42,411 bases of DNA from a virus: IMG/VR virus record IMGVR_UViG_3300032007_000171, positions 1-42,411 of that record; one strand, 5' to 3'. Below the pieces are notes generated by a model. The model saw only the letters and a list, made by a program, of their open reading frames with translations. It was not told the DNA's origin and ran no database searches. Shown in pieces: positions 128 to 36,697 of the stretch. The position numbers were made by a program, and so were the translations under genes. The first letter of the stretch is position 1; the number at the start of each line of letters is the position of its first letter.

Positions 128-377
128 TTTGGACTTCGGTCTGATGTTCTACGCCTCTAAAGAGCCTTTCGGACTCCGGAAGGTGGAGCGCTGCGCCCTT
201 CGGTCACGGCCGGTAGATGCTGCAGGCGATAAGAAGACGCCCGGGCGTAAGTTCGAAATGACAGATCGGTTCCTGTATTTCACCGACCTCGATACCGGAG
301 AAGCGAAACAATGCCGCAAGCGCCTGATCACGAAGGTACGCTTCGGTAACGACTGGTATGAAGTAACACTTGAATAA
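78..377 (+). CDS. Hypothetical protein (99 aa)
   Basis: The ATG overlaps the TGA of the preceding gene (GGAATGAG, an ATGA junction). The stop lies 10 nt before the next ATG, inside a tightly packed plus-strand operon. Confidence 0.55.
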   Translation: MRMSAAIQRMRLMRQAHLDFGLMFYASKEPFGLRKVERCALRSRPVDAAGDKKTPGRKFEMTDRFLYFTDLDTGEAKQCRKRLITKVRFGNDWYEVTLE

Positions 378-3374: not shown

Positions 3375-5082
3375 GGAGCATTTCGATGAGCAGTACTATT
3401 CTGCAGTGCAGACGCTGGCTCTATTGGCCGATACTCAGGATATGTATTTCGAGTTAGGCCGTGGATCCGGTAAGACTACTCATATACTCGGACCTCGTAT
3501 AGATCGTGTACAGAATAGTATGCCTGGATCTGTGCAGGTGTTTTTGGCTTCTACCTACAAATCTATATTCGAGAACCTGGTGCCTGGTATCATGGAGTTC
3601 TTTACCGATCATTATGAAGAGGATATGTATTACTGCATCGGTAAACGGCCACCGGCTCACTTCAAGCCATGCCGCACACTCATTACCGACTGGAAAAACA
3701 CGATATCGTTTGTCAATGGTACCGTGATCCAGTTTGTCAGCTGCGAGCGTCCGGAGCGGGCTAATGGTAAGAATATAGCGCACCTGTATATGGATGAGAT
3801 GCTGCACATTAAGCAGCGCGTAGTGGATGAGAATGTGCGCCCGGCCATGCGTTCTAAATCGACCTGCTTCTACGATTCTCCCTACTTCATGGGTACCACC
3901 GGCACTACTTCTACTCCGAATATAGAGACCGATCAGGATTGGTTCCTGAAGTACGAGAATAAGATGGATCCGGAGAAGATCCGTACGATTCAGGCTATCG
4001 CGCTCGAGCTGGATCACCGGTACTACATGTTAGAGAATGCGCAACTCCGGAATGACGAGGCGGCTATCCGGAAGCTCACGAATTACTGCAGGCGAATCGA
4101 GGCGATGCTCACTCAGCTACGGCGTGGATCCATTTACTACCTCCGGGCCTCTTCATTCAGTAACATTAAGATCCTTGGTACCGACTATATCCAAAAGCAG
4201 ATGGAAGGCACCTTGGATAAGGCGTCGCTTAACACCTCTATCTTTGCCGTGCGCGAAAATAGAGTCAAAGATATGTTCTTCGGCCATTTCGGTCTGAAGT
4301 ATATCGAATCGGATACCTATAAACTCGAGCGTATTGAATCGCTCTCGATAGGAGAAGAGGCGAACTTCACATGTGCCGATATGCGTAACTGTAATCTCGA
4401 TGCACCTTTATATATAGGATACGATCCGGGACCGTTCACCTCTATGGTTATCGGTCAATATAACGAAGATCGTACCGTATTTCATGTGCTGAAGGATATC
4501 TACACATGGTGGCCTGAGCAGCAACCACAACTGGCCTACCTATTCCAGAACTTCTTTGCGCCGATGCGTAATAAACAGATCTTCCTTCATTATGACCGTG
4601 CCGGCAACCAGCGAGATCCACAGTGGAAAAAGTATAAACCTACTTTTGGAGACGAATCGGATACCGATGCTCAGACTCTGAAGATGGAACTCGAGCAAAG
4701 AGGTTGGAATGTCGATCTGATGTCACTCGGCCAACCTACCATCTATTATAAACAGCATCTGCATTTGCTCTCGAGACTCTTCAGCGGTAAAGATGACTTC
4801 CAGGTGCACGGCATTCCGGTGATTAAGATCCGGATAGATGAGAATGAATGTGAGGCCCTGATATCGTCTATCTATAACTCTCCGCTGAAGCGTACCGGCG
4901 GTGAAGTGGAACTCGATAAGTCCTCGGAGAAAAAGCCGTTTGAAGAGCAGGCGTTTGGATCCACTCAGATAGCTTCCGCGCTTATGTACCTCTTATGGGG
5001 TGAGTTTTCGAAAAAGTACCTCAATGTGGCCGATCACCATGATCTGTCCGGAGGCTATGCAGGATTCACCGGCATAAAGTAA
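3352..5082 (+). CDS. terL: Large terminase subunit (576 aa)
   Basis: There is an N-terminal P-loop ELGRGSGKTTH (Walker A) and an acidic Walker-B-like HLYMDEM. Size and context are typical of TerL. Confidence 0.8.
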   Translation: MKKRIINKEHFDEQYYSAVQTLALLADTQDMYFELGRGSGKTTHILGPRIDRVQNSMPGSVQVFLASTYKSIFENLVPGIMEFFTDHYEEDMYYCIGKRPPAHFKPCRTLITDWKNTISFVNGTVIQFVSCERPERANGKNIAHLYMDEMLHIKQRVVDENVRPAMRSKSTCFYDSPYFMGTTGTTSTPNIETDQDWFLKYENKMDPEKIRTIQAIALELDHRYYMLENAQLRNDEAAIRKLTNYCRRIEAMLTQLRRGSIYYLRASSFSNIKILGTDYIQKQMEGTLDKASLNTSIFAVRENRVKDMFFGHFGLKYIESDTYKLERIESLSIGEEANFTCADMRNCNLDAPLYIGYDPGPFTSMVIGQYNEDRTVFHVLKDIYTWWPEQQPQLAYLFQNFFAPMRNKQIFLHYDRAGNQRDPQWKKYKPTFGDESDTDAQTLKMELEQRGWNVDLMSLGQPTIYYKQHLHLLSRLFSGKDDFQVHGIPVIKIRIDENECEALISSIYNSPLKRTGGEVELDKSSEKKPFEEQAFGSTQIASALMYLLWGEFSKKYLNVADHHDLSGGYAGFTGIK

Positions 5083-10205: not shown

Positions 10206-13200
10206 TTATTTAAACGGATCATCGTTCGGATCAATACCTTCGATCTCCGGTTCTTTGCTCTTTGTCGGTTCTGCCGGTGCTGCCGGTTCGGTTTTCTCTT
10301 CAGCGGCGTTTACAGTGCGCTCGAAGTCGATGCCATTCAGCTGCTCGCATAGGATATCGTACTTAAACATATACGCGCTGGTAGTGGTGGTGTGCTTTAC
10401 CATCGTGCGCTTATCCTGATCCAGTGCCTCCCATGTGAACCGGGTGCCGTCGATAGAACCGATATACGCGCTATGGCTCCGGAAGTAGTTAGTTAGCGTC
10501 TGCTTACTCAGCGCATCCTTGCCGGTAACATCTTTCGCGTACGCTCGATAGGCTGCCTCCAGCGGTATGTACAGGATCTTACATCCTATACCTACCTCGG
10601 CGGTCTTCTCTTTCTTATTGCTCTTATATGTAAGTATATTAGTGGTACACTCGTCAATCTTGAACTCACGACCGGCAATCACTGTACCAATACTCAGCTG
10701 TGTATTCAGACTATAGAAGAAGTTACCGAGCTTGCTGGTCTTCGATATACTCTCCATCTGAGTGAGGACTTTCGAAATAGCCATCTCGTAGAAGTGCATG
10801 TGCGCCCATGGCAGACGGATATCGCACTGCTCTCCTACGAGACGACTGGTGGCTGATAGAATAGCTACAGATCGGATAACGCGCTCCAGGCCGTCCTTAT
10901 TGGTGGCCGATTCCCATGCGTCCTCTTTCATCCTCGCAACCTCTTCATTAAAATACCGCTTGAAATGGCGCTCGAAGACTGGGCGCTGTCTAATGATATC
11001 GCATAATATATTGCCCATACCCAGGTCGGCCTGTCTCTTTAGCTTTTCGAATAACTCACTGTCGATCTTATCGAAGCCTTCCTCTTTCTTTTGCACCTCA
11101 CAGATGATCACACGGTTACTCAACGAACCGTCATCCTGTTGTGGTGTGTCCTGACCCAGTAGGATAGGCGCTGCGTTCGTCTTACTGGTATCGAGGCTCT
11201 TATTAGCGATATCCTTCACCTTGGTACGGCCTTTATCATCATATACGGCACTCTTCAGACCTTGGAACTTGATCTGCGATATACCGTTATCGTTATACTC
11301 CTCCATGATTACCGGCATATTCCGGAAGTGCTCGAGCACAATAAAGAAGGCTGCATCGGATCCGCTGTTTAAGTTAAATACAGCTGCATCTCGCCTCATC
11401 CATAATCCCCGGATACCATATGCTAACTCTGTCTTACCGGATCCTGTAGGACCGGCGAAACACAAAGCCGTGAAACTACCCACGATGCTGTAGATTAAAT
11501 CTCGGAAGCTGCACGCGATGGCAAAGATCACAGCCCATTTGCCGTTTTCATTCACCTGAAATACGCGGTCCATAAGGCCGGCCCACTCAGTGAACTCCAT
11601 ACGATCCTTTTCCTGCGGCTCGAGATAGAATGCGTATTCATCCTGCTCATACGGATTATCTTCCTTCCGCCCGCCTAACCGGATGCTCGATGAGGCCGGG
11701 CTGTACAGGCGTATATTATTCACTTCAGCTACACCCAAGTTGTCGGTGTACTCCAGTTTCCACTCCCCATCCTTATCCGGATAATAGACGGCATTCGGTA
11801 GCATCAAAAAGCCTTCCGGCTGCCATCCGAATACGCGTGCCTCATAGCAATCGATGAAGTTATAACTAAGCACCTGGCGAATCTTATCCCACTGCTGGGG
11901 TGTACCGTTGAAGTTATATGCGCCGGCGCCAAATAGTCTCTTCTTCATATCCTGCAGGCTGACAAATGCATCAGATGGCCACTCTACATACTGACGGCCT
12001 CCGTACATGTGATTCAACCGGATCACGCGCTTACTGTGATCGGTGGCCGGATCCACGAATAACAGTGCCTCCATGTAGAAGTCACTCACTACCATGTGAC
12101 CGCCTCCTTTCTCATTCTTAAACACATAAGCTACCGGATGCGGCTCTTCTCCTTCTTTGGGTTGGCTAAGCAGCGGGAAAAATCCGTACTGCTCATAGTA
12201 CTTATTCCATATATCGTTTTCCTTGACGTACTCCGGTACATCATACAGGTTATTGATCGTAGCTATCTTATCGCTCAGATTAGCACGCCTCCGTTCCGCC
12301 TCACGTCTGTCTTTCTTGCTGCCTAAGATCTCATTAAGCAGTTTGTTATAGCTGGCGGCCGGCAAACGTAGTAGCTTCCGGAACTCTGCATTATTCACCT
12401 CTCGAGTGGTGGCGTCGCTGTCTGCGATGACGCGCATACACTGTCTGATGATATCCGCGCGCTCGTCACTCGTCATGTCATCGGTCATCGCGTCAGTACG
12501 CCGGCTCAGATACCACTCTGTAAATCCACTGATGCGCTCAATCTTGGCACCGTCATCGTCTGTATCCGGAATGCTTACGCGTACGCGCAAACCGTCACCG
12601 TGAATCGACTTGACTACCTGCAGCGTCACCGGTTCCTGGTCATCGTCACTGTCGCCGGTCAACTCCTCTTTGCGTACCATGATTGACTCCCACGCACGTA
12701 GCTTCTGGACGGCGTTCTTATTCGTGCCTCCTACCCATAGGATAGTGGGTGCCTCATCTACATGCTGGAAGAAGTAATCTTTGCTGAATGTAAGTATCAG
12801 ATTATTACCATAAACCTTCCGGAGATCTTCAGCATCATCTATTCCGTACAGGTCGCCTTTCCAATCGTCTTCAGCTACGCGGTTCTTATTCACGATGCTG
12901 CGTATGTCGCCTGATTCAACCTGATAACTGTATGCCAGGTTATTGATCAGCTTCTTGCGATAGATATCCTCCGGTACGCAGGCTATCATACATGCAATCT
13001 GCTCGACGTGCTTACTCATCTCGGCTGGATCTTCACTCGTCGGATAGATAGAGCTCATATACTCCGACCATTGTTTGGTTCGGTTAGCGACTATCATGGC
13101 CAGTGTCGTGTCTTCGGCTTTCTTCTGATCGACCTGCAGTAACCAGCTATCCGGATCCTCATTCATCGGAATCATTACCACCTTCACCTTAAAGCCCGCC

Positions 13201-14069
13201 TTCAGTAGCAGCTTCATGCTCTTTATGGTGGCGTTCTGGCCGGCGGTATCACCGTCATACATCAGAATGGCCTCGTCACAGTAACGCCTCAGTAACTGCA
13301 CCTGCTTTTCTCCGAAGGCGGTGCCGCTGCCGGCTACCGTATTCCGGAATCCGCACATCCACATTCGGATCACGTCATTCTGACCTTCTACTATATATAC
13401 GCATTTCTCATGCTGGATATCTTTCGATGCCTGGCGCAAACCGAATAACAGGCTGTCCTTCTTAAATAGTACGCTCTCTGCGCTATTCTTGTATTTCGCG
13501 CGCTCATTCGGATCCAGTGTCCGGGCGGTCCATCCTACTACCACGCCGCTCTGACTGTAGAACGGATAGGTGATACGGTTCCGGAATTCACCGGCGCTAC
13601 ACCATCCCAAACCGAAGGCCTTGGCCGCTTCTCTCGAGATGCTGCGCTTCTCCAGGTAATCGCTGAAGCTCTGCTCGGACTCACCGGCGCGCTCATACTC
13701 ATTCTGGCGCTGCTCGTTATCCCGGACTAACTTCTCACGCTCTAACCGGCGCTTCTTTTCCTCCGGACTCTCTTCCATGTCATCCGGGATCTCGATATTC
13801 TTCTTAGCGGCTAACATGCGCACGGCCTCGACGAAGGTCATACCCTCGACTTGCTGCACATACTTGAAGGCGTTACCACCTTCTCCACATACGAAACACT
13901 TGAAAATTCCGCGCGATGCACTTACGCTCATCGACGGGTGCCGGTCAGCATGGAATGGGCATAATCCCCATAGATTAGCGCCGCGCTTATTCAGAGTCTG
14001 ATATTCTGCTACTACATCCTCGATAGGATTAGCAGATTTGACTTTTTCAATAAGTTCTTCACTTAGCAT
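10206..14069 (-). CDS. Primase-helicase fusion protein (1287 aa): DnaG-type zinc finger + TOPRIM primase with a C-terminal P-loop NTPase
   Basis: CHC2 zinc finger CPFHADRHPSMSV...FKCFVCGEGG; TOPRIM YIVEGQNDV...LMYDGDTAGQ; C-terminal Walker A FAGPTGSGKTE and Walker B-like VIMEEYND. Confidence 0.8.
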   Translation of the reverse strand: MLSEELIEKVKSANPIEDVVAEYQTLNKRGANLWGLCPFHADRHPSMSVSASRGIFKCFVCGEGGNAFKYVQQVEGMTFVEAVRMLAAKKNIEIPDDMEESPEEKKRRLEREKLVRDNEQRQNEYERAGESEQSFSDYLEKRSISREAAKAFGLGWCSAGEFRNRITYPFYSQSGVVVGWTARTLDPNERAKYKNSAESVLFKKDSLLFGLRQASKDIQHEKCVYIVEGQNDVIRMWMCGFRNTVAGSGTAFGEKQVQLLRRYCDEAILMYDGDTAGQNATIKSMKLLLKAGFKVKVVMIPMNEDPDSWLLQVDQKKAEDTTLAMIVANRTKQWSEYMSSIYPTSEDPAEMSKHVEQIACMIACVPEDIYRKKLINNLAYSYQVESGDIRSIVNKNRVAEDDWKGDLYGIDDAEDLRKVYGNNLILTFSKDYFFQHVDEAPTILWVGGTNKNAVQKLRAWESIMVRKEELTGDSDDDQEPVTLQVVKSIHGDGLRVRVSIPDTDDDGAKIERISGFTEWYLSRRTDAMTDDMTSDERADIIRQCMRVIADSDATTREVNNAEFRKLLRLPAASYNKLLNEILGSKKDRREAERRRANLSDKIATINNLYDVPEYVKENDIWNKYYEQYGFFPLLSQPKEGEEPHPVAYVFKNEKGGGHMVVSDFYMEALLFVDPATDHSKRVIRLNHMYGGRQYVEWPSDAFVSLQDMKKRLFGAGAYNFNGTPQQWDKIRQVLSYNFIDCYEARVFGWQPEGFLMLPNAVYYPDKDGEWKLEYTDNLGVAEVNNIRLYSPASSSIRLGGRKEDNPYEQDEYAFYLEPQEKDRMEFTEWAGLMDRVFQVNENGKWAVIFAIACSFRDLIYSIVGSFTALCFAGPTGSGKTELAYGIRGLWMRRDAAVFNLNSGSDAAFFIVLEHFRNMPVIMEEYNDNGISQIKFQGLKSAVYDDKGRTKVKDIANKSLDTSKTNAAPILLGQDTPQQDDGSLSNRVIICEVQKKEEGFDKIDSELFEKLKRQADLGMGNILCDIIRQRPVFERHFKRYFNEEVARMKEDAWESATNKDGLERVIRSVAILSATSRLVGEQCDIRLPWAHMHFYEMAISKVLTQMESISKTSKLGNFFYSLNTQLSIGTVIAGREFKIDECTTNILTYKSNKKEKTAEVGIGCKILYIPLEAAYRAYAKDVTGKDALSKQTLTNYFRSHSAYIGSIDGTRFTWEALDQDKRTMVKHTTTTSAYMFKYDILCEQLNGIDFERTVNAAEEKTEPAAPAEPTKSKEPEIEGIDPNDDPFK

Positions 14070-14871: not shown

Positions 14872-15206
14872 GTCTCCGGATAGATGCTGTTAACTTTTGA
14901 ATTGATCTTCCTTGTCAGAATGAACATATACATCCCATTGCTCACCATATCAATCGCTCTACGCTCATCGGTCTCACCTTCGGCCATAGCGATATCCACG
15001 ATGCACCGATCTGTTTCCTCATCTGTCTCCCAACCGACAGCGCCGCCATTCAGACCGGCGAAATTATTGAGGTAGTCACATATGTCACTCGCTAAACCTC
15101 GTACTCTATCAAAGCAGATATGTATATGCAGTTCTGATGCATCTACTCTGCAGTCTTCCTCCGTAATAGGAAGGCCTTTTTGGATGGTAAATACTATCTT
15201 ATCCAT
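14865..15206 (-). CDS. Hypothetical protein (113 aa)
   Basis: ATG start. Operon context only. Confidence 0.55.
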   Translation of the reverse strand: MDKIVFTIQKGLPITEEDCRVDASELHIHICFDRVRGLASDICDYLNNFAGLNGGAVGWETDEETDRCIVDIAMAEGETDERRAIDMVSNGMYMFILTRKINSKVNSIYPETC

Positions 15207-15218
15207 ATAGATTTTAGA

Positions 15219-15533
15219 TTAAGCTACTCTGATTAACCTGGTGTAGGTCTTATTCATCTCATAGAGCGTACCTCTATCCAGGCGTGTCACGCTGATGCAT
15301 ACTACACATGCGATCTTAACTGCTAATCCAAGCTTCTCCGGATTCGTTACCAGTTTCGGAATGTCTATATACCCGCCAACCTTCAGCCGGCCGGCCATCC
15401 CCTCGAGATAAGTACACATCCGGAGCGCGTCTCTCTCTCCATACTTATCATTCATCTCCCGATACCAATCCCAGCTACCGTCGAACCGGTATTTGCTAAG
15501 ATCTACTTCTTCTATGTTAGTCTGCTCTTCCAT
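15219..15533 (-). CDS. Hypothetical protein (104 aa from ATG 15533; the track starts at TTG 15536)
   Basis: ATG GAA GAG CAG read at 15533 on the minus strand. Operon context only. Confidence 0.55.
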   Translation of the reverse strand: MEEQTNIEEVDLSKYRFDGSWDWYREMNDKYGERDALRMCTYLEGMAGRLKVGGYIDIPKLVTNPEKLGLAVKIACVVCISVTRLDRGTLYEMNKTYTRLIRVA

Positions 15534-15536
15534 CAA

Positions 15537-15846
15537 TTAAATTTCTAATAGTGGACGATAGAGGAGTCCAACCTCTATGGCGATCGGGTGCATTGACGTG
15601 GCGCCTTCATCATCACGTTTGCGTTGCGTACCTTATCGTCTTATACCTTTCGTCCGGATAAACAGGCGGGGGCTTGGCTTTCGTCACCAACGGAGTGCGA
15701 TACTTAGGGACTCTCCGTCCATGGAGCGAACGCGATACAGGACTCCACGCAAGGGCGCTTATTCGTTTCAGCCATCTTAATAGGCTGCCTACCTGTTATA
15801 AGATATCTATTATAATTCAAAGATCGATCTTGCGAGGGCTATCCTG
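15537..15846 (-). ncRNA. Candidate structured non-coding RNA region (310 nt, ORF-free on the transcribed strand)
   Basis: The longest minus-strand ATG ORF is about 23 codons. GC content is higher than in the other intergenic regions. There is a perfect hairpin ATAGAGG-AGTCCAA-CCTCTAT (15558-15578), helices CGGAG/CTCCG (15691/15713) and GTCC/GGAC (15717/15740), and a long-range complement GGAGTCC (15563) / GGACTCC (15741). Confidence 0.35.
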
Positions 15847-16209
15847 TTATGCTACTTCGCCTGCAGGATTCTCCTTCGGTAGTTCCGGAAGCTTCTCGCG
15901 TATCCGCTCGCATATATCATGCAGCATGTCGGCGCGCCGGTACTCGAACTCGTGATGCTTCTGCATCGCCTGGATGGCTTCTCTAAGTCTTCCGCTCTCT
16001 CCGGATAGCAGTTCCAACTTTCCACCGTTAGCGGCTAAGCATACCGCGTCGATGTTCTTCTGCTCGCTGTACTGTTTCTTCAGGGTCGTTAGGCGTTTCG
16101 CATTCAAAATGCGCCTGCTACCCCCCCCAAGACGGTTGGCCATGCGTCTGGTGGCATACACGAGGCTCTTTGCCTCCTCGTAATTCAATTCAATGATGAA
16201 TGTTTCCAT
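15847..16209 (-). CDS. Hypothetical protein (120 aa)
   Basis: ATG at 16207-16209. It lies between tRNA-like copy A and the ORF-free region. Confidence 0.55.
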   Translation of the reverse strand: METFIIELNYEEAKSLVYATRRMANRLGGGSRRILNAKRLTTLKKQYSEQKNIDAVCLAANGGKLELLSGESGRLREAIQAMQKHHEFEYRRADMLHDICERIREKLPELPKENPAGEVA

Positions 16210-16263
16210 AAGTGTGTTTGTTTTTTTAATTATTTCGGTTATCTAATTCAAAGATCAATCTTG

Positions 16264-16337
16264 TGACGGATGAGGTTTTCGACTCCTCGACCTCCGGGTT
16301 AACACCTCGGCGCTCTTACCATCTGAGCTAATCCGCC
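16264..16337 (-). tRNA. tRNA-Asn(GTT)-like gene, copy A (slightly degenerate)
   Basis: The minus strand reads GGCGGAT TA GCTC AGATGGTAA GAGC G CCGAG GTGTTAA CCCGG AGGTC GAGGA GTCGAAA ACCTC ATCCGTC A. It forms a cloverleaf with anticodon GTT. There is a G2-U71 wobble and an A-C mismatch in the anticodon stem. The T-arm is non-canonical (A53-A61, G54). Confidence 0.5.
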
Positions 16338-16549
16338 ATTTGTGGGCAACTATCCGGTGGCGGTTCGCAGTATTCAGAGGTGCGACGCGGTCGGCGGCAA
16401 ATTTTCCATGCAGGACCTTCACTGCTTTATCCGCGCTACTATAGTTATCAGCCTTTCCTTATTCAGGCACAACCACCGGCAGCCTTATTTCCGGGCTTCC
16501 TTACTCAGCCCCTAACTCCGTACCTTTCAAAGATCACTTACTTTGGGTT
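16338..16549 (-). ncRNA. Second ORF-free, GC-rich spacer (212 nt) between recombinase A and tRNA-like copy A; candidate ncRNA
   Basis: There is no minus-strand ORF. The equivalent spacer in unit B is only about 65 nt. The region has repeated AATAAGG(N)GCTG blocks and local hairpins (for example GGGCT-GAGTAAGGAA-GCCC on the minus strand). Confidence 0.3.
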
Positions 16550-17203
16550 TTATCTAAATATGCCATGTTCCTTCCAACACTCCCTTTGGCAGTTTTCCGG
16601 GGCGTATAGTCCTGTATATACGAGGTAGCGATAGAGTGTGCATGTACTGATGTGCAACCGCTTTGCTATCTTGGTCTTCTCCATGCCTTCCTCTAACTTT
16701 GCCACTATCCAATCATGCTTCTCTACGCATTTCGGATTCAGGCGAAGCCGTTGCCCTTTGTCGTGCCACCACTTTTTGCCTTGCGCCCTGCGTAACTTCA
16801 AAGCCTCTCGGGTACGGTCTGAGATAAGTTTGCGTTCAATCTCTGCGGATAATCCGAAGGCGAATGCAAGCACCTTACTCTGTATATCCTCGCCGAGCCG
16901 GTAGTTATCCTTGATAGTCCAAACGCGCACCTCTTTGGTCATACATATATTCAGAATCTCCATGACCATGAATAGCGAACGACCAAGACGGCTTATTTCC
17001 GATGCGATGATAAGGTCGCCCTTCTGCGCCCTCTTCAGTAATTTGCCGAGGGCACGCTTACTGTATATCTTTGCACCGCTGATAGTTTCCTCTATCCAAT
17101 CGTCCACGACAAGCGATTCCTTCTGTGCAAAACGCTCTATCTCGTAGCGTTGGTTATCTACTGTCTGCGTGTCGGTTGATACGCGAATATATCCGTAAGT
17201 CAT
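16550..17203 (-). CDS. Small serine recombinase (resolvase/invertase family), copy A (217 aa)
   Basis: N-terminal MTYGYIRVSTDTQ (catalytic Ser motif), SEISRLGRS, LSAEIERKLISDRTREAL, and a C-terminal HTH KTKIAKRLHISTCTLYRYL. Confidence 0.85.
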   Translation of the reverse strand: MTYGYIRVSTDTQTVDNQRYEIERFAQKESLVVDDWIEETISGAKIYSKRALGKLLKRAQKGDLIIASEISRLGRSLFMVMEILNICMTKEVRVWTIKDNYRLGEDIQSKVLAFAFGLSAEIERKLISDRTREALKLRRAQGKKWWHDKGQRLRLNPKCVEKHDWIVAKLEEGMEKTKIAKRLHISTCTLYRYLVYTGLYAPENCQRECWKEHGIFR

Positions 17204-17262
17204 AGTTCAACACTCATTGCTGTAATAAGTTGGTTGGTTAATAGCCCAAAGTTCAAATCTTG

Positions 17263-17336
17263 TGACGGATGAGGTTTTCGACTCCTCGACCTCCGGGTTA
17301 ACACCCCGGCGCTCTTACCATCTGAGCTAATCCGTC
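17263..17336 (-). tRNA. tRNA-Asn(GTT)-like gene, copy B (all stems paired except the T-arm)
   Basis: The minus strand reads GACGGAT TA GCTC AGATGGTAA GAGC G CCGGG GTGTTAA CCCGG AGGTC GAGGA GTCGAAA ACCTC ATCCGTC A. The 7-bp acceptor, D and anticodon stems are perfect, with U33 and A37 present. The T-arm again has A53-A61 and G54 instead of G53-C61 and T54. Confidence 0.6.
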
Positions 17337-17401
17337 ATTTGCGGGCAACTATCCGTCACGGCCTCATTGCCCTTCTTAACGGTTATCCAAATTTGAGTTC
17401 A

Positions 17402-18016
17402 TTAAAGATCATTTTCTTCGGCGATATATTTCTTATAATAACGTATGACGGTATTTCTACTCATATGCAGCCTATTCGCTATGCGTCTGAAACTCATTCC
17501 GGAGTCTTTCCATATCCAAATCTTATCCTTATAAGGGAAGCACTTATAACTTTCTTCATCCGCCCCCCCCTCCGGACGACCTAACTTCCTGCCTTCTGCC
17601 TTCAGACGCGCTAACGCTTCCTTGGTACGCATCGATATCAGGTTACGCTCTATCTCTGCCGAGAGACCAAAAGCGAAGGCTAATACCTTTGCTTGGATAT
17701 CGTCGCCGAGCCGGTAGTTATCCTTTATCGTCCAGACTTTACACTCTTTCTTCATGCAAATAGAGAGGATCTCCATAATCATGAACAGGCTACGTCCGAG
17801 ACGCGATATCTCCGAGCAGATAATCAAGTCGTCCTTCTTTACCTTCTTAAGCAGCGGTCCGAGTTTGCGCTTATCGTAGTTCTTGGTTCCGGATATGGTT
17901 TCTTCTATCCATCCGTCGATGTGTAGATCGTTCCGTTCACAGAACTTCTCAATCTCGAAACGCTGGTTTTCGACCGTTTGCTTATCACTACTTACTCGAA
18001 TATATCCGTATGTCAT
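17402..18016 (-). CDS. Small serine recombinase (resolvase/invertase family), copy B (204 aa)
   Basis: MTYGYIRVSSDKQ, SEISRLGRS, LSAEIERNLISMRTKEAL, and a C-terminal HTH SFRRIANRLHMSRNTVIRYY. It is about 70% identical by eye to copy A over the catalytic domain. Confidence 0.85.
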   Translation of the reverse strand: MTYGYIRVSSDKQTVENQRFEIEKFCERNDLHIDGWIEETISGTKNYDKRKLGPLLKKVKKDDLIICSEISRLGRSLFMIMEILSICMKKECKVWTIKDNYRLGDDIQAKVLAFAFGLSAEIERNLISMRTKEALARLKAEGRKLGRPEGGADEESYKCFPYKDKIWIWKDSGMSFRRIANRLHMSRNTVIRYYKKYIAEENDL

Positions 18017-18219
18017 ATTACCTTAAAGCTATTCAAAAGTTCCTGAAGTTCCTCGATGTACTCGGTTTTATTCCATCCCTCCAGCTCACATACTGCGATA
18101 TCTGCTTGTATCCATGAAAGGAGTTTGCACTTCTCCTCTTCTCGGCACATCTGATTGAATGTGTGCCTCATCTCCGGACTGGCGTCGATGGGTATGGTCC
18201 AATTACCTCTTAAAGCCAT
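18013..18219 (-). CDS. Hypothetical protein (68 aa)
   Basis: ATGA overlap with the recombinase B start codon. Confidence 0.5.
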   Translation of the reverse strand: MALRGNWTIPIDASPEMRHTFNQMCREEEKCKLLSWIQADIAVCELEGWNKTEYIEELQELLNSFKVI

Positions 18220-18388
18220 GCTTCACATCTCTTTCCTTAGTAAACATATCAATACCTCTTGCTGTCCGGACGCGTGCGGCAACTTGATAAACCTCCTGCC
18301 GGTACCAACTTCGAGCCTTCATTTGCTCCGGATAGTTTGTGACTATCCTTTCGGCCTGGGCGTATATATCATTCAAGCTCTTATCCAT
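18203..18388 (-). CDS. Hypothetical protein (61 aa from ATG 18388; the track starts at GTG 18391)
   Basis: TGATG junction with the upstream gene. Early-operon context. Confidence 0.45.
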   Translation of the reverse strand: MDKSLNDIYAQAERIVTNYPEQMKARSWYRQEVYQVAARVRTARGIDMFTKERDVKHGFKR

Positions 18389-18636
18389 CACTTCAGATAT
18401 GGCTCAACATACTTCTGCATGTACTTATTCCGGATCTGAATAGCCAGGCGTGTCATCGTCTGACCCTGCAGAGCCATCGATACCGCGCGTGTAGAAGCGT
18501 TGAACTCTCGTGCTAAAACTTCTACATATCCGCGTGGGGGAGGCGGCACGAATCGGCCGGTTGCTCCGGATGATTTCAAAAATTCGACTGCAGGCATATT
18601 CTTCACCGGAGCCTGCGTTTTCTCGTCATTATTCAT
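18388..18636 (-). CDS. Putative Cro-like / early DNA-binding protein (82 aa)
   Basis: This is the first gene of the leftward early operon, divergent from the CI-like repressor. VEVLAREFNASTRAVSMALQG resembles a helix-turn-helix. Confidence 0.4.
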   Translation of the reverse strand: MNNDEKTQAPVKNMPAVEFLKSSGATGRFVPPPPRGYVEVLAREFNASTRAVSMALQGQTMTRLAIQIRNKYMQKYVEPYLK

Positions 18637-18869
18637 AAATTTTCAATTTTATTGCGTTTTTATTTTCGTATATCGGAAAAAATTTGTATTTTTGCGCAAA
18701 ATTTTTGTAACTTTTGTGCATTTATTTTTCCCTTTTCGGAAAATTCGGTGCAAAGGTACAAAAAATTTTTGATATATGCAAATTTTTGGGAAAAAAAATA
18801 CTAAAAAAATGTAAATAATATGCTATTTTTAGCAAAATAACCCATTTTTAACACCAAAACTGAAGAGCT
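18637..18869. promoter_or_regulatory. Divergent lysis-lysogeny switch region (AT-rich) between the cro-like and cI-like genes
   Basis: A 233-bp AT-rich intergenic region lies between divergent HTH genes and contains the 63-bp repeated promoter element. Confidence 0.6.
18749..18811 (-). promoter_or_regulatory. 63-bp early promoter/operator element, copy 1 (identical to 21407-21469)
   Basis: TGCAAAGGTACAAAAAATTTTTGATATATGCAAATTTTTGGGAAAAAAAATACTAAAAAAATG. The minus strand carries TAccTTTGca (-7 box) facing the cro-like gene. Confidence 0.7.
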
Positions 18870-19271
18870 ATGAATGAAAAAACTGCTGAACAACGAGAAT
18901 TAGTGAGCTTGCTAAATGCTGCTCGATCGCAAGGGCTTGTGGAAAATCAAAAAGAGTTTGCGGATATGATCCAATTACATCCTGGATATCTATCCTCACT
19001 CATTAAAGGATCCAAACCTATAACGAAGCAAATGCTCAAACGAATTAGAGATGCTGCAGCTATGGCAGGAGTAATTGTTGAAGGAAACGGCAACGCTACG
19101 GCTACCGGTCCCGGATCCACAGCGCAAGTTATATCCGGAGATCTCAGCGCGCTCATCAAGGAGATGGGGGAACAGCGTCGATCGTATGAAGAGCAGCTGC
19201 GTGCAAAGGATAAGCAGATATCAGAATGTATGCAGCTCCTGAAGGATGCGATAGCTAAGTCTAAGAAATGA
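18870..19271 (+). CDS. CI-like repressor, XRE-family HTH (133 aa)
   Basis: QKEFADMIQLHPGYLSSLIKGSKPITKQMLKRI fits the XRE/Cro-CI HTH pattern. The C-terminus is coiled-coil-like, and the gene is divergent from the early operon and adjacent to int. Confidence 0.6.
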   Translation: MNEKTAEQRELVSLLNAARSQGLVENQKEFADMIQLHPGYLSSLIKGSKPITKQMLKRIRDAAAMAGVIVEGNGNATATGPGSTAQVISGDLSALIKEMGEQRRSYEEQLRAKDKQISECMQLLKDAIAKSKK

Positions 19272-19692: not shown

Positions 19693-20889
19693 ATGCCTAC
19701 AACTCCCGCGCACACGATCACCCCTTATATCCCTGCGGTCCTACGGAAAAATTCGCATGGGTATGTAATCGAGTACTACTTCTTCAATCACCTATCCGGT
19801 GGTTATGTCCGGCGTACTATAAAACTAAACAGGATCCGCAAGCGGTTCACTTCTGCCAAGGATTTCAAGGAGTACGCCACCAGTATTATCTGTAAGCTGA
19901 ATGTGAAATTAGCCGGCGGCTGGTCACCCATCGGCGAGGTGGTGAATACGCGCGAGTATGTACCCATCGCTCAAGTTATTGATCAGTACATCCGGGAGAA
20001 ACAAAGTTCATTGGCTAAAAACACAATGATGGCATACAGATCCTTCTGTATCCGATTGAAAAGTTGGGTGGAGAAAAATTATCCTCAATGTAACTGTGCG
20101 CTTTTTACAAAGGTAATAGCTATTCAGTTCATGGATCATATTTGGGCTGGAGATAGTGCTGTCGTAAACAAATCAAAGAAGAGTGCTCAGTGTTCCGGGC
20201 ATGTGAGCGAGCGTACGTATAATAATAACCTAAAACTTGGCCGGGCGTTTTTCGCCTGGTGTATCGATAAGTGCTATGCAAAAGAGAATCCCTTCGAGAC
20301 CATTAAGCCAAAGCGAGAGGCTAAAAAGAAGCGCATTCTGATACCAAAGCAGATCCGGACAAAGATAGATCAGTATTTTGCAGAGAACAATCCTGCCATG
20401 CGAATTGTTTGCCGGCTGGTATATACTTCTCTCTTGCGGCCGATAGAAGTATCCCGTGTGCGTGTGCATCAGATCCTATATGATAAATCATGCATCTACA
20501 TGCCGTTCGATCAGACAAAGAATGGGAAAGAGCGCTACGGCCGAATCGATAAGGATCTCGCCATGATGCTGCAGGAGTATCTTCATGGAGCATCTGCCGC
20601 TGATTATATCTTCAGCGATGGCACATGGTCCTATGGGTCCAAACAGAAAAACTCCCACGCGTTCGGTAATGCATGGGAGAAAATGAGAGAGGATCTGAAT
20701 CTTCCGGAGGAATATCAGCTATACTCTCTCCGGGACACCGGTATCCATGATTTGCTAATCGATGGAGTTGTAGATCTCGATGTGATGCATGCGGCCGGCC
20801 ACAGTGACCTCACAATGACTACCCGCTATGCAGATCACATCGACGAGGGTATGATTTCGCGCATTAACAATCAAGCTTCCGGGTACTAA
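19693..20889 (+). CDS. int: Tyrosine integrase (398 aa)
   Basis: The C-terminal catalytic pattern is present: LLRPIEVSR (Arg I), YSLRDTGIHDL (second Arg region) and HAAGHSDLTMTTRYADH (His ... Tyr nucleophile). Confidence 0.85.
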   Translation: MPTTPAHTITPYIPAVLRKNSHGYVIEYYFFNHLSGGYVRRTIKLNRIRKRFTSAKDFKEYATSIICKLNVKLAGGWSPIGEVVNTREYVPIAQVIDQYIREKQSSLAKNTMMAYRSFCIRLKSWVEKNYPQCNCALFTKVIAIQFMDHIWAGDSAVVNKSKKSAQCSGHVSERTYNNNLKLGRAFFAWCIDKCYAKENPFETIKPKREAKKKRILIPKQIRTKIDQYFAENNPAMRIVCRLVYTSLLRPIEVSRVRVHQILYDKSCIYMPFDQTKNGKERYGRIDKDLAMMLQEYLHGASAADYIFSDGTWSYGSKQKNSHAFGNAWEKMREDLNLPEEYQLYSLRDTGIHDLLIDGVVDLDVMHAAGHSDLTMTTRYADHIDEGMISRINNQASGY

Positions 20890-28249: not shown

Positions 28250-29474
28250 TTTCTTGTATGGTGTTTGAGTTGTTATCCAAAATTAAGTTACCGCTGTTAT
28301 CCTGGAGCAGGCCGGCGCGGTTGCTCGGAAGCGGATGTACGGTACGGTTCGGCTTCTGGAAGCGTGTCTGCTTCAGTACTTCGATCGTCATCTCAAAAGT
28401 CTCCGGTTCGCGCTGCTTAACGGCGTGCTTGGCGTCGGTAGTGATAAGTACCGGCACCCACTCGCCGTCTATCTTGATACTTACGGAATCGCTCGTAAGC
28501 ATATCCATCAGCGCAATGATACGCGCCGGTGTCAGATATCCGGTCTGCAGGCTGTATTTTGTGGTCACGGTACGGCGCTTATAGGATCGGTTCGTACTGT
28601 TGACGGTTTTTGACGTGATGTAAGGATCCTGATCCTCCACTTCGGATATATCCTGCAGCTCGCCGGTAAGCAGCAGCGCCTCACGCGCTCCCATGCTATT
28701 AGTCCATCTTATCAGATAGGACTCATCCGTGCTCGGATCATCCTGGATAGATATGGAGTTGATCAGGAACTCTTCGTTATAATGGTAGTATAGCATCAGA
28801 ATGTTCGCGTCTGAATAAATCTGGAACCGCGAAACGGCGTCGCCATCAAGCCATATACCGAAAAGGTTAAATCTTCCGGATATCGCGAGTATTTTGCTGT
28901 CGTAATCTTGTTGGTCAGCCTGTCCGTTATCCGTGTCGATGTGAAAATCATCGTATTCGTTGGTTATGAACGCAAATATCTCTTCCATCGCCTGCAGCTC
29001 TGAACGGTAGAAGTGCAAGGATCCTTCCTCTTCTCCTCGAGCTAATAAGAACGGGTGTTTGTTGGATGGCATGGCTCCTGTAAGCGTCAGGCCCCCGGAA
29101 GTGCCCGGAAGGCAAAGATGCTCCGTGCTATCCAGCTCGGACGCGGTTCCGTCGATATGAGTAAGCTGCACGGTAGCATAGCCGTATATCTCTGCATCGC
29201 GATAAATGAAGACATGATATCTTCCGGTGTACGCCTGGATGATATCGGTCAAATCGATACTGAATCTGTTTTCGTCTTGATCTCCTTTCTCTGGATAGCA
29301 AACCAGATCGACGGTGATATACTCGTTACCGGGTCTGGAGTCCGACTCTACACCAAGCTTGAATTTAAAGCTCCGCGGCGCATTGGACGTCGGATCCGTG
29401 TCGATGACTAAGTAGGAAACGCCATCGGCTGCGAAGCACACACTTGCCGGTTTTTTGCTAAGTATTACTGCCAT
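28236..29474 (-). CDS. Tail/baseplate protein (412 aa from ATG 29474; the track ORF start at 29525 lies inside the promoter)
   Basis: ATG 29472-29474 lies 19 nt downstream of late promoter element 29493-29530. Confidence 0.55.
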   Translation of the reverse strand: MAVILSKKPASVCFAADGVSYLVIDTDPTSNAPRSFKFKLGVESDSRPGNEYITVDLVCYPEKGDQDENRFSIDLTDIIQAYTGRYHVFIYRDAEIYGYATVQLTHIDGTASELDSTEHLCLPGTSGGLTLTGAMPSNKHPFLLARGEEEGSLHFYRSELQAMEEIFAFITNEYDDFHIDTDNGQADQQDYDSKILAISGRFNLFGIWLDGDAVSRFQIYSDANILMLYYHYNEEFLINSISIQDDPSTDESYLIRWTNSMGAREALLLTGELQDISEVEDQDPYITSKTVNSTNRSYKRRTVTTKYSLQTGYLTPARIIALMDMLTSDSVSIKIDGEWVPVLITTDAKHAVKQREPETFEMTIEVLKQTRFQKPNRTVHPLPSNRAGLLQDNSGNLILDNNSNTIQENGSI

Positions 29475-29492
29475 AGTTTTTTCTGTTTTGTT

Positions 29493-29530
29493 GTGCAAAG
29501 GTACTGCTTTTTTTTCAAATATCAAAAGAC
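29493..29530 (-). promoter_or_regulatory. Late promoter element (copy b)
   Basis: The minus strand reads GTCTTTTGATATTTGAAAAAAAAGCAGTACCTTTGCAC, giving TTTG-N19-TAccTTTG. Confidence 0.7.
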
Positions 29531-29536
29531 ACGATT

Positions 29537-31306
29537 TTACGGCTTCCTTCCGGCTATAAATTCGATGGTCACATGCTGCTTATCGCTATTCTCGAGTTCG
29601 TACTGGAGTTTGGCCGGCCAGCACAATCGACCTTGGATTATGTAGGGTGTTGTGAAGTCAAACTGATTCACATCGACTGTCTTCATTACGGTAGTGATGG
29701 TAATACGATCACTATTCTCTGCGATGATATTGTACTCGGTGTTAAACTCCTTATTACATTGGGTTGTATTGATATATAGCTGGTCGTACTCTTCCGCTTC
29801 CGGAGACTGCCTGGACCATACTTCGATGTTGTCAATAAGGATGCTATTATAGATGGATTCCATAATACTTATGCCGGTGTTATGCATCTGTATGCACACT
29901 CCAAATGCGAGTGGGCACTCTGACGTTTTGGTCTCGTCTATGTCGCCTCCACGCGTGGTGGTAGTGCGCTGGCACACGCCATCCAGTTCGAAGCTAAAGC
30001 ATTCTCCATAATCATAATCCATAGTTGTAGGATCCATACCATTTTCAACGCAGTATCCATCACGAAGAGACTCACACCATGAGTCATATAGATATTCCGG
30101 AGTTTTAATCTTATCCATATCGTCGATAGGCATGTGATCCGGAGAAGAGTTAAAGGTAATTTGCTTATCGCGCATAGCCCCTAATTTGCGGGTCTTCGAA
30201 AATAGCTTCAGGATCTTCTCTGTGAACTGCATTTTGACAGTTTTATTGTCCGGCTGCAGTATAAATACCACGCCGAATTGCGCCTGCACGGCCGATATGA
30301 ACTCCTTGGCGCTTACTTCCGGAACCAATGCGCTGTATGGCATGTATCCGGGATAGATAGCGTCCATGGTGTTATTAAGCACTACGATCTGATTCCATTT
30401 CACCTCGAGTCCATCAGGCCAATACGGCCAATATGTACCAAAGTCATAATTTAGCGTATATCCCAGATAGTTGAATATCTGCTTAATGACGACATCTAAC
30501 CGTAAGAATCCGGTACAGTATAGGTGTTTATTTTTGTTCTTGTAACCTACCATCCATGTACTTGTACTGTGATCATAGACTCGCGGTTGTTTCTTCCCGT
30601 AGCACTCGGTTGTTGTGTACCATTCAAACTCGGATTTTAGACGTACCATTTTATAGGTGTCTTCGCCGTAGGTTTTTTGTAGAGTCATTAACTCCTCATG
30701 TAAAGTTCTGTCTTCCGCATTCCCCGTTACATAGCGATTAACACATGCCGGCTCGTTTAACCATCCGTCTTTTGTATTCATGGCGGCTACAATAAAGTCG
30801 TGATTCTTCAGCCAGTTGTTTAAGTCATCGCCATATGTATAAGGTGGGACCATATAGTCATAGAATTGTGCTATGAGCTGCGTGCGGTAATACTCGATAT
30901 CATCAAGGAGACCCGGAATGTTTCCGAAATGCATATCGGCCATCGCCTGCGGTACGGTCACGGCATCCAGCTTACTCCAAATATTCGACTCATTGAAGTA
31001 CAGTGTAGCCTCGACGGCCTCATCTGAGCATCCGGAGATGCACATGGTGGCCGCTTTCTGCCAGCTACCCTGCGTCACTATCACGGAGATATCCGGAATG
31101 GCCCGGATGGCAGCTTCTTCAGAATCGTAAATATCGAGATGATCCGGGAACTGCAGAAGCTTCCGGTTTTTATGCGTCAGCGGTAAGGATACCGGTAATG
31201 ACATAGATCCGGTCTTCGAGAAGATCGGGCTGGCCATCTCTATATTTAATTTGAGATCGAGCGGTAAATCAAACTTGCTACCGGTCTCTAACAATGCGAT
31301 GATCAT
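29537..31306 (-). CDS. Tail protein following the tape measure (589 aa; distal-tail/tail-tip candidate)
   Basis: ATGA overlap with the tape-measure stop. Evidence is positional. Confidence 0.55.
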   Translation of the reverse strand: MIIALLETGSKFDLPLDLKLNIEMASPIFSKTGSMSLPVSLPLTHKNRKLLQFPDHLDIYDSEEAAIRAIPDISVIVTQGSWQKAATMCISGCSDEAVEATLYFNESNIWSKLDAVTVPQAMADMHFGNIPGLLDDIEYYRTQLIAQFYDYMVPPYTYGDDLNNWLKNHDFIVAAMNTKDGWLNEPACVNRYVTGNAEDRTLHEELMTLQKTYGEDTYKMVRLKSEFEWYTTTECYGKKQPRVYDHSTSTWMVGYKNKNKHLYCTGFLRLDVVIKQIFNYLGYTLNYDFGTYWPYWPDGLEVKWNQIVVLNNTMDAIYPGYMPYSALVPEVSAKEFISAVQAQFGVVFILQPDNKTVKMQFTEKILKLFSKTRKLGAMRDKQITFNSSPDHMPIDDMDKIKTPEYLYDSWCESLRDGYCVENGMDPTTMDYDYGECFSFELDGVCQRTTTTRGGDIDETKTSECPLAFGVCIQMHNTGISIMESIYNSILIDNIEVWSRQSPEAEEYDQLYINTTQCNKEFNTEYNIIAENSDRITITTVMKTVDVNQFDFTTPYIIQGRLCWPAKLQYELENSDKQHVTIEFIAGRKP

Positions 31307-35886: not shown

Positions 35887-35902
35887 AATCTTTCGAATTT
35901 AT

Positions 35903-35940
35903 GTGCAAAGGTACTGCTTTTTTTTCAAATATCAAAAGAC
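35903..35940 (-). promoter_or_regulatory. Late promoter element (copy c)
   Basis: The 38-mer is identical to copy b and lies 17 nt upstream of the tape-measure ATG. Confidence 0.7.
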
Positions 35941-36046
35941 ACGCTTTTGGGGGTTAAAACCGGGGTGTTCCGGATACAAAGAAGAGAGGACCGGATGGCC
36001 CTCCCTTCCCCATAAAAACACACTTATACAAAAGCCCCTTGCCGGG

Positions 36047-36610: not shown

Positions 36611-36697
36611 AATCGTATTTAGTTAAAATGTGAAACGAAATCGGGCGGCGGAGGGCAGCAGGATTCATTACCGTGCCACTCCGCTTAGCCCATTACC

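Follow-up and report, generated by a model that had tools for sequence, protein, structure and literature searches.

A candidate accessory slot with two Mpi-family invertase genes and a tRNA-shaped RNA in a phage ascribed to Bacteroidales

Mpi, the master DNA invertase (ssr2) of Bacteroides fragilis, flips promoters in trans at many loci when expressed ectopically (PMC10403206). Its family is enriched adjoining gene-altering inversions (PMC9881135), and members lie beside restriction-modification shufflons (Milman et al. 2023, PMC9881135). Mpi-family invertases are also encoded at at least 133 viral loci. Here we describe two such genes, which we call recA and recB, in a viral DNA of 42,411 nt analysed at its full length (the window). 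Like Mpi, both proteins pass the family cutoff and join an N-terminal serine domain to a C-terminal HTH; unlike Mpi of B. fragilis, they are encoded by a phage, within an early lytic operon, and no inverted-repeat target was found for them in the phage. On chromosomes, the closest relatives of recA sit beside restriction-modification shufflons; in contrast to shufflon-linked invertases, however, the phage has neither the motif seen adjacent to chromosomal homologs nor a target gene with inverted partial copies. recA and recB also resemble Gin, Hin and Cin in being phage-encoded small serine recombinases, with Gin (4m6f) as the best solved-structure match (E 1e-9), although they are only about 30% identical, no invertible tail-fibre segment is present and no inverted sites of about 26 bp adjoin them.

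The second component of the locus is an RNA. Like phage-encoded tRNA genes, it forms a 74-nt cloverleaf, has the tertiary-core nucleotides and passes the Rfam tRNA threshold; unlike them, it has an odd T loop, G32 and A73, lacks its own promoter, and has its anticodon arm replaced in sister phages. Plant mitochondrial t-elements serve as mRNA processing signals in the tRNA punctuation model. Together with the tmRNA tRNA-like domain and the YrlA Y RNAs (PMC4201824), they keep the acceptor, T and D arms and leave the anticodon region free, as the phage RNA does; unlike all three, the phage RNA is embedded in an early operon. [quoted passage not shown] We rejected YrlA identity for the phage RNA because an Rfam search with E up to 10 found no family except tRNA (the long-arm variant described below matched none) and because the cloverleaf ends close an acceptor stem, unlike YrlA; nor does the GNCGAA motif help, since YrlA carries it in the Ro-binding region and not in the T loop. 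No link between Ro60 and the phage RNA is known. In the PeSL cassettes of T4-type phages and in lambdoid mosaic boundary sequences, short repeated structured or regulatory motifs flank accessory ORFs. The locus shares with these different cargo at the same joints and a hyper-variable early region, and differs in that its repeated unit includes the tRNA-shaped RNA and the trailer motif GATCTTTGAA.

Two recombinase genes of different ancestry

The earlier note on this DNA described a tandem duplication of a module, made of a small serine recombinase and a tRNA-Asn-like gene, in a phage that already has a tyrosine integrase. There are indeed two small serine recombinase genes, and a 74-nt cloverleaf with anticodon GTT comes after each; the integrase was also confirmed:

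17402..18016, minus strand: recA, Mpi-family serine recombinase, 204 aa (NF009949 311.5 bits; PF00239 plus HTH)
16550..17203, minus strand: recB, Mpi-family serine recombinase of the B124-14-like phage subfamily, 217 aa (NF009949 285.8 bits)
19693..20889, plus strand: tyrosine integrase (phrog_1, E 1.3e-30)

Judged from their sequences, the two genes belong to the Mpi family of serine invertases and differ in ancestry. Both exceed the curated NCBI equivalog cutoff of NF009949 (272 bits, whole protein), match PF00239 with E 2e-32 and end in HTH_7/HTH_24. Both ORFs are intact, and their catalytic motifs YGYIRVS and SRLGRS align to Gin, the alignment of recA with 4m6f taking in Ser9 and RLGRS. 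The catalytic motif and C-terminal HTH that the earlier note read in both proteins were thus recovered, while its estimate by eye of about 70% identity proved too high, the measured protein identity being 61% (125/204). At the DNA level, the genes are 65.7% identical over 145 codons and only 42.8% at third codon positions, which is near saturation. Both proteins begin MTYGYIRVS, and the opening 70 nt are 76% identical (repeat family D7).

A recombinase phylogeny, as the earlier note had proposed, separates the two rather than pairing them: they fall in different well-supported Mpi-family clades and are not sisters. recA groups with the homologs of G002 (a sister phage) and Paludibacteraceae (support 99/99), and the recB clade has a support of 100/99. 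In the alignment, a C-terminal tail shared with the B124-14-like phage subfamily is present in recB and missing from recA; this phage-specific subfamily is marked by the C-terminal extension and a degenerate GRP linker motif. Homologs of recB are 98% identical in phage G009 and 65-69% identical in gut phages across all 216 aa, relatives P0002-P0004 of recA are 94% identical, and both genes are about 70% identical to Bacteroidales chromosomal Mpi-family members.

The tRNA-shaped RNA and its relatives

The RNA lies downstream of each recombinase gene, behind a single early promoter:

18751..18782, minus strand: early promoter, Bacteroidetes type (TTTG ... TAccTTTG), with no second one of its kind ahead of the locus on that strand
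17343..17376, minus strand: H1 leader hairpin (GGGCAA ... TTGCCC), 5' of cloverleaf A, conserved in G002, G007, L181 and L177
17263..17336, minus strand: tRNA-shaped RNA copy A, anticodon-like GTT, T arm GAGGA-GTCGAAA-ACCTC, A73 (RF00005 54.2 bits; R1 105 bits)
16264..16337, minus strand: tRNA-shaped RNA copy B, two differences from A, A-C mismatch in the anticodon stem (RF00005 44.9 bits; R1 101.9 bits)

RF00005 is the Rfam tRNA family, with a gathering score of 29 bits, and R1 is a model built in this analysis. Most of what the earlier note had read in the cloverleaves stands: the copies differ at 2 positions, their common 5' flank measures 19 nt (about 20 had been claimed), the non-canonical T arm with A53-A61 and G54 is found in both, and the A-C mismatch reported for one anticodon stem is located in the 16264 copy. 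Both copies have G at position 32 and lack the canonical T arm (G53-C61, U54-A58), and all tertiary-core nucleotides are readable (U8, A14, G15, G18, G19, A21, C48, U55, C56 and A58). The Asn identity elements are the GUU anticodon and the G73 discriminator; the window cloverleaves have GUU, and the discriminator is A73 in both. The suggested check by tRNA predictors gave a divided answer: ARAGORN found 0 tRNA genes in the whole window and rejected both cloverleaves, yet both pass the RF00005 threshold.

We searched for a host source of the cloverleaf. BLAST against four Bacteroidales genomes returned no match, and the best model matches in 151 genomes were ordinary tRNA-Met, Ala and Val (64-75 bits), which leaves a copy of host tRNA-Asn unsupported. 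The cloverleaf body is nearer to host tRNA-Met/Ile(CAT) than to any host Asn gene, and the GenBank phages compared with it showed generic tRNA similarity only. We also rejected the cloverleaf as attP of the tyrosine integrase: it belongs to the early operon, int is 2.4 kb away on the far side of the immunity region (6 kb away in G001), and no host tRNA found resembles it in its odd T arm.

Relatives of the RNA were collected from other phages, giving a small sample of nine sequences from about four phage types. Eight of the 9 have the A53-A61/G54 T arm in identical form, an invariance that is partly built in because part of the family was gathered with a pattern requiring this odd T arm. In L177, L181 and G007, a 39-nt hairpin capped by UCCG or UACG stands in place of the anticodon arm, with acceptor, D and odd T arms as in the window. 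An intron was rejected for these long-arm variants, because no sensible anticodon loop is left with the 22-nt excess, which folds into a covarying helix with a UNCG cap. L011 and L180 have the anticodon ATT together with the A-C mismatch, which occurs in 3/9 members, and a distant phage group combines the same T arm with a compensated acceptor pair and, in some phages, ATT. As discriminator, the window copies have A73 and G002 has G73; T73 prevails in the G001 type, although L179 has A73. G002 and G010 have a canonical T arm and G73 in an otherwise near-identical body, and ARAGORN calls the G002 copy tRNA-Asn; this version could be a working tRNA-Asn, with the window version its recently degraded copy.

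The helices are well supported across the family. In the alignment, 93% of cells are paired and four pairs have both partners changed (3-70, for instance, from CG to GC), with slid controls all far lower, and T-stem pairs 50-64 and 51-63 have changed with pairing kept. The window and G001 have only four short matches, yet the 17-nt odd T arm is common to both groups. H1 takes a covarying form in G001-type phages (GGGC-AGC/GCT-GCCC), and G007, L181 and L177 keep H1 plus cloverleaf without any recombinase. A general linkage of Mpi genes with the RNA was likewise rejected, as among 160 homolog loci the RNA occurs only in G002 and G010. Ordinary tRNA-Thr, Met or Glu genes lie near some other Mpi-homolog loci.

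The RNA is built of a leader hairpin, acceptor, D and T arms whose odd T loop is invariant, and a fourth arm that can be exchanged. Because the anticodon arm is replaced or reads ATT in relatives while the T arm is kept, the evidence favours a conserved tRNA-shaped RNA that would have no decoding role over a normal tRNA-Asn. A scan for TAnnTTTG on the minus strand at 15000-19000 found no instance besides the early promoter; as the RNA has no promoter of its own, we place it inside the early polycistronic transcript, and in G001-type phages it occupies the same operon position. The RNA may be cut from this transcript by host RNase P and RNase Z, for which the acceptor/T-arm unit suffices, and the predicted cleavage would both punctuate the mRNA and free a stable small RNA that does not decode Asn. 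It is possible, though well short of probable, that these elements form an undescribed family of tRNA-derived scaffold RNAs of phages, host-processed from the early transcript, acting in punctuation or as an effector sRNA and serving as the landmark of a hotspot at which phages exchange accessory genes, among them invertases directed at phase-variable defence or surface switches of the host. The swappable fourth arm of such a scaffold would take the form of an Asn-like arm, of a long hairpin with a UNCG cap or of a minihelix with a long insert.

The repeat block, the insertion point and the search for recombinase targets

The RNA copies lie in a direct repeat, accompanied by short trailer motifs and, further on, an accessory ORF:

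17247..17262, minus strand: copy A 3' trailer, CAAGATT then degenerate GATCTTTGAA; left junction of the recB insertion
16338..16549, minus strand: spacer, with GATCTTTGAA at 16526-16535, hairpin H2 (GGGGCT-GAGTAAGGA-AGCCC) at 16493-16512 and the 3' half of H1 at 16338-16356
16257..16356, minus strand: 100-nt repeat unit, partner 17256-17355, 97/100 identical with sharp edges (family D5)
16247..16266, minus strand: copy B 3' trailer, TCACAAGATTGATCTTTGAA
15847..16209, minus strand: orf120, accessory ORF matching no family and lacking in G002, G007 and L181
15816..15835, minus strand: third trailer copy, solo, TCGCAAGATCGATCTTTGAA, after orf120; its G002 homolog lies directly 3' of the tRNA

Alignment shows the duplicated unit to be only the 100-nt block holding the RNA, not the recombinase: just outside the block, identity falls to the random level, with 3-10/20 identical positions in the flanking 20-mers. 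The repeats are direct, exactly 999 bp apart, and lie on either side of recB. The geometry is also that expected of a resolvase substrate. Comparison with G007, whose empty site reads CAAGATT-GATCTTTGAA, shows recB to sit exactly between CAAGATT and GATCTTTGAA; an unrelated 303-aa ORF occupies the same point in L181. Hairpin H2 recurs in G007, L181, G001 and G009, and its stem covaries in G009 (L092). In G002, the order is recA, the canonical tRNA and then directly the homolog of window 15838-15523, a segment that is 96% identical to L012 3754-4069. Accessory genes may be swapped in via recombination at short repeated trailer and leader motifs, and one such swap would have brought recB and made the second RNA copy.

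We next consider what the recombinases might act on. Three candidate site motifs, one of them what we take to be the B. fragilis Mpi repeat consensus, were scanned across the phage; none was enriched, and no candidate recombinase site emerged. Three collinear genomes were compared and no inversion was seen. In agreement with the earlier note, we found no invertible segment nearby, as no inverted pair flanks or neighbours recA or recB. Its statement that the pair at 1977/2292 is the only strong inverted repeat has to be corrected, since the late-promoter cassettes hold further inverted pairs of 39 nt (95% complementary) and 62 nt, near 40022-41009 and 35903-35964. The iteron inverted repeat at 1955-2343 found no support as a recombinase target; it is made of ACTCCAAC units ahead of the terminase genes. 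A terminase search for host assignment gave a best match of 53% identity.

In Hallella and B. ndongoniae, long inverted repeats begin at the stop codon of the recombinase homolog, and those by chromosomal homologs extend into a 1099-aa gene. Because the nearest chromosomal relatives of recA flank restriction-modification shufflons, our best guess is that the invertase target would lie in host DNA. The invertases, made early and without a recognisable phage site, may act in trans on host invertible DNA, the candidates being restriction-modification shufflons or surface-structure promoters, as for Mpi in trans in B. fragilis.

Competing explanations and implications

Taken with all of these proposed steps, the locus is somewhat more probably than not a slot for varying accessory genes, marked by a resident tRNA-shaped RNA and lying in the early-left operon of a temperate Bacteroidales phage. 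The best explanation, as we see it, is a hotspot for gene swapping flagged by a tRNA mimic in a phage ascribed to gut or rumen Bacteroidales, as opposed to a duplicated recombinase-plus-tRNA module. Under the latter, the module duplicated in tandem in situ and the recombinases diverged while gene conversion or strong selection held the cloverleaves alike. The like order and strand of the units, the shared MTYGYIRVS starts with 76% identity over the first 70 nt and the 97% identical cloverleaf blocks would fit, but we consider this highly improbable. The recombinases lie in separate clades, with recB nearer to other phages' recombinases than to recA and bearing their C-terminal tail, missing in recA, and the near-saturated 42.8% at third positions contrasts with 97/100 in the blocks. 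Moreover, the repeat edges are sharp, copy B lacks half of the H1 leader hairpin, G009 has recB without recA and without a cloverleaf detected in the 16.8 kb covered, and sister phages carry the cloverleaf at the same locus with one recombinase (G002) or none (G007, G008/L181, L177). The 100-nt repeats or trailers might instead be serine recombinase sites, making recB plus repeat a site-specific cassette of about 1 kb, integron-cassette-like or res-like. Direct repeats 999 bp apart bracket recB, one trailer position holds different cargo genes in different phages, and an orphan third trailer copy follows orf120; still, we hold this quite unlikely, as cloverleaf, leader and trailer are equally conserved in recombinase-free phages, the cargo ORFs of L181 and G007 come without a recombinase, no dyad-symmetric crossover site of the hix, gix or res site I type was seen in the block, and the recombinase genes of relatives adjoin unrelated motifs.

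The cloverleaves themselves admit two further readings. They might be working phage tRNA-Asn genes with an unusual T arm that help to decode Asn codons in the infected cell, for instance when host defences attack tRNAs or when genes are rich in AAC/AAT. Both pass the Rfam tRNA threshold with every tertiary-core nucleotide readable, the canonical G002 version is called tRNA-Asn by ARAGORN, and T-stem pairs 50-64 and 51-63 vary with pairing kept. We nevertheless judge this unlikely: near-universal T-loop features are replaced (G54, A53-A61), position 32 is G, the discriminator is A73 rather than the Asn identity element G73, ARAGORN is negative in the window, homologs have no anticodon or ATT, and G007 shares the DGR region at 79% identity but has an anticodon-less RNA. 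The ARAGORN result, the anticodon-stem mismatch in 3/9 members and the failure to find a substrate in the phage would also suit decaying tRNA pseudogenes beside recombinases that are inert passengers (morons) with no current substrate. This is very unlikely in our view, given that the 17-nt odd T arm is kept across phage groups sharing little other DNA, that helices stay paired through compensatory changes, and that both recombinase ORFs are intact, with catalytic motifs present and the equivalog cutoff exceeded.

As a conserved tRNA-shaped RNA, the element offers a natural case in which the tRNA scaffold is kept and the anticodon arm exchanged, and it suggests that its function relies on tRNA shape or on tRNA-processing enzymes, not on decoding. 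It also calls for caution in annotation, as Infernal reports a tRNA and ARAGORN nothing, and neither describes these elements well. The locus further opens the question of the role of Mpi-family invertases in Bacteroidales phages, two of which, different from each other, are encoded by the early operon here without a recognisable phage site. If it is true that they flip host restriction-modification or capsule switches, they would give the phage a route to reset phase-variable defences.

Composition of the recombinase locus

The window is a virus record, complete at 42,411 bases and carrying a 127-base terminal repeat, in which a motif scan found Bacteroidetes-type promoters (TTTG ... TAnnTTTG). 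The recombinase and cloverleaf locus lies within a leftward early operon, which runs from the sole promoter in the region on that strand, through small ORFs, to the primase:

10206-14069, primase
16264-16337, minus strand, cloverleaf copy B
16550-17203, recB, resolvase catalytic domain and C-terminal HTH
17263-17336, minus strand, cloverleaf A
17402-18016, recA, resolvase catalytic domain and C-terminal HTH
18751-18782, promoter of the early operon
19693-20889, tyrosine integrase

The tyrosine integrase and the two small serine recombinases with their catalytic and HTH domains, described in an earlier note, were all located. With scores of 311.5 bits for recA and 285.8 bits for recB, both genes exceed the curated cutoff (272 bits) of NCBIfam NF009949, 'master DNA invertase Mpi family', and the alignment of Gin invertase with recA spans the catalytic serine, the RLGRS motif and the GRP linker. 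We assign both, from their sequences, to the known Mpi family, as new members in an unusual setting.

The earlier note had also judged the recombinases about 70% identical by eye and had read the locus as a tandem duplication of a module of recombinase and tRNA-Asn(GTT)-like gene. Measured protein identity is 61%. Over 145 aligned codons recA and recB are 65.7% identical, with just 42.8% at third positions, whereas the 100-nt block around each cloverleaf is identical between copies at 97 of 100 positions; in the 20-mers that flank it left and right, identity is no better than random. A maximum-likelihood tree built from 52 family members places recA with its ortholog from the sister phage G002 and with Paludibacteraceae/Bacteroidales chromosomal genes (support 99/99), and recB with genes of G009 and B124-14-like gut phages (100/99). 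recB and the B124-14-like subfamily have in common a degenerate linker motif and a tail at the C terminus (YRYLVYTGL ... W.EHGI), both of which are missing from recA and the chromosomal genes. The separate clades, the tail, the third-position identity and the sharp-edged repeat together argue against duplication of recombinase and tRNA as a whole unit. The flagged sequence features are real; our verdict is that the locus would instead be a mosaic cargo slot bearing a tRNA mimic as its label.

Resident cloverleaf and variable cargo

Whole-genome comparison showed the window to be collinear with two sister phages, G002 (43.9 kb) and G007 (44.1 kb). The G002 locus runs from recA (89% identical) through the leader hairpin to a canonical tRNA-Asn, accepted by ARAGORN, which is directly joined to a homolog of window 15838-15523 (96% identical); recB and orf120 are both absent from it. 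No recombinase gene was found at the locus in G007, the relative G008/L181 or the metagenome contig L177, all of which retain leader hairpin and cloverleaf at the equivalent position. Since the cloverleaf is kept in place in these recombinase-free relatives, it is what resides at the locus, with the recombinase genes as variable cargo. The insertion point of recB lies in the 3' trailer of the cloverleaf, between CAAGATT and GATCTTTGAA; it is empty in G007 and holds an unrelated 303-aa ORF in L181. A third, solo trailer copy lies 3' of orf120, and just the 3' half of the leader hairpin precedes copy B. Relative to int and the switch region, the element of the distant phage G001 has the operon position seen in the window.

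The small ORFs orf68 and orf62 (window 18017-18387) are missing from G002, in which the orf82 homolog has its stop inside an overlap with recA; this stretch is an additional variable cargo position. In the structural region, the neighbours 35978-40069 and 40011-40959 are swapped in order relative to G002 (29886-33989 and 28929-29874), with orientation unchanged. The joints coincide with late-promoter cassette copies (35892-35959, 40011-40078 and 40948-41009), which suggests rearrangement mediated by these repeated cassettes.

The cloverleaf and neighbouring elements

The tRNA predictors divide over the two 74-nt elements: ARAGORN reports zero tRNAs across the window, whereas the Rfam tRNA model scores them at 54.2 and 44.9 bits, and its alignment of both displays every mismatch previously described. 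Nine family members were collected and aligned. Their acceptor, D and T arms are almost invariant, the T-arm invariance being partly built in because two collecting patterns demanded the odd T arm, and the tertiary-core nucleotides U8, A14, G15, G18, G19, A21, C48, U55, C56 and A58 are complete. The odd T arm, GAGGA-GTCGAAA-ACCTC, occurs in eight of the nine, with the canonical arm in G002 only; between the two, pairs 50-64 and 51-63 are changed with pairing retained. G001-type phages, which have almost no other DNA in common with the window, carry GC at acceptor pair 3-70 where the others have CG, and two such members show anticodon ATT and an A-C stem mismatch. In L177, L181 and G007 a 39-nt arm stands in place of the 17-nt anticodon arm, with a covarying outer pair (UA vs CG) and a UCCG or UACG tetraloop at the tip; this long-arm variant matched no Rfam family. 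Across the alignment 93% of pair cells are paired, four pairs are changed on both sides, and the pairing score far exceeds every slid control.

The discriminator base is A in the window; in G002 it is G, and the G001 type has mostly T. Position 32 is G. Among 151 Bacteroidales genomes the closest matches are ordinary tRNA-Met, Ala and Val genes (64-75 bits), with no Asn genes or prophage copies among the best. A standard tRNA-Asn identity is disfavoured by the odd T arm and by the varied anticodon arm and discriminator. We read the cloverleaf as a conserved tRNA-shaped RNA with a fourth arm free to change, which would make it a new variant within the known class of tRNA-like RNAs.

Further elements were noted:

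window 15769-15794 and 16493-16512, hairpin module, also in G007, L177, L181 and G001
L251:8052-8167 (G007 locus) and L177:~135-246, minus strand, second tRNA-derived element
L174:9861-9932 (G002 locus), minus strand, tRNA-like element, 43.9 bits with R1, our own model

The hairpin module follows each GATCTTTGAA as AGGU(A/U)GG, stem, loop (UAUUAAGA or GAGUAAGGA) and stem; covariation between phages is seen in its stems, the ORF-free regions 15537-15846 and 16338-16549 each open with it, and it has no Rfam match. The second tRNA-derived element is preceded by a second copy of the leader hairpin and followed, like the cloverleaf, by a CAAGAT-GATCTTTGAA trailer. It has acceptor stem GGGGGA/TCCCTC, a covarying 6-bp T arm (GAGGGG/CCCCTC vs GAGTGG/CCACTC) and a long AT-rich hairpin replacing the D and anticodon arms. 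The G002 element has a canonical T arm and an anticodon arm of just 15 nt. Recombinase-tRNA adjacency recurs with unrelated tRNAs, since in four gut phage contigs (L040:3222-3295, L041, L044 and L244) an ordinary tRNA-Thr(TGT) with its own Bacteroidetes promoter lies ~140 nt downstream of a recB-like gene (65% identical).

Possible processing and recombinase targets

The motif scan found no promoter of the cloverleaf's own, and the tRNA parts conserved in it are those recognised by RNase P, RNase Z and the CCA-adding enzyme; on these grounds excision from the early transcript would be the most economical mechanism. Cutting out the cloverleaf would split the upstream from the downstream message and free a stable small RNA. 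Mitochondrial tRNA-like elements, which serve as processing signals, are a known type of parallel. The proposed excision also resembles the maturation of M. smegmatis YrlA, in which RNase P cleavage is followed by CCA addition (PMC4201824).

No inverted segments were found among the three collinear genomes (window, G002 and G007). Nor was any of three candidate site motifs enriched in the phage: what we take to be the B. fragilis Mpi repeat consensus, an 18-nt motif directly after the stop codon of many chromosomal homologs, and, searched in the window, the motif 3' of B124-14-like phage recombinase genes. In those phages (L045, L049-L052, L061, L067, L076 and L087-L091) the conserved motif after the stop codon, T(T/A)T(C/G/A)TG(T/C)(G/A)CTACAG(G/A)AA, is partly dyad-symmetric and a candidate site for the recB subfamily.

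At about 45 of 160 loci, Mpi-family homologs carry GAGCG(A/T)TTT(T/C)GTGCAGCA at the stop codon, with an ORF start, ...SWVILSPIEQSIK..., next after it. Directly after the homolog's stop codon, Hallella multisaccharivorax and Bacteroides ndongoniae carry long inverted repeats (310 nt, 82% complementary), which extend into a 1099-aa gene on the opposite strand. Both pairs come from complete genomes and begin at the post-stop motif:

L246:932-1241 with 4184-4493, inverted repeat pair
L247:920-1253 with 2359-2692, inverted repeat pair

A dozen or more contigs end 16-77 nt past this motif, as expected at invertible DNA, and this region is probably where restriction-modification shufflons cross over. 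The observations agree with a published report that Mpi-family genes are enriched next to gene-altering inversions, type II restriction-modification genes included (PMC9881135).

With low probability, the 100-nt direct repeats could themselves be the recombinase substrate; against this, they are equally conserved in phages without any recombinase. A terminase search across 401 genomes yielded no host, its best match being 53% identical. Mpi inverts promoters in trans from an ectopic site (PMC10403206). Because it works in trans and chromosomal relatives of the phage recombinases probably adjoin invertible DNA, our best guess is that these recombinases would act on a target in the host.
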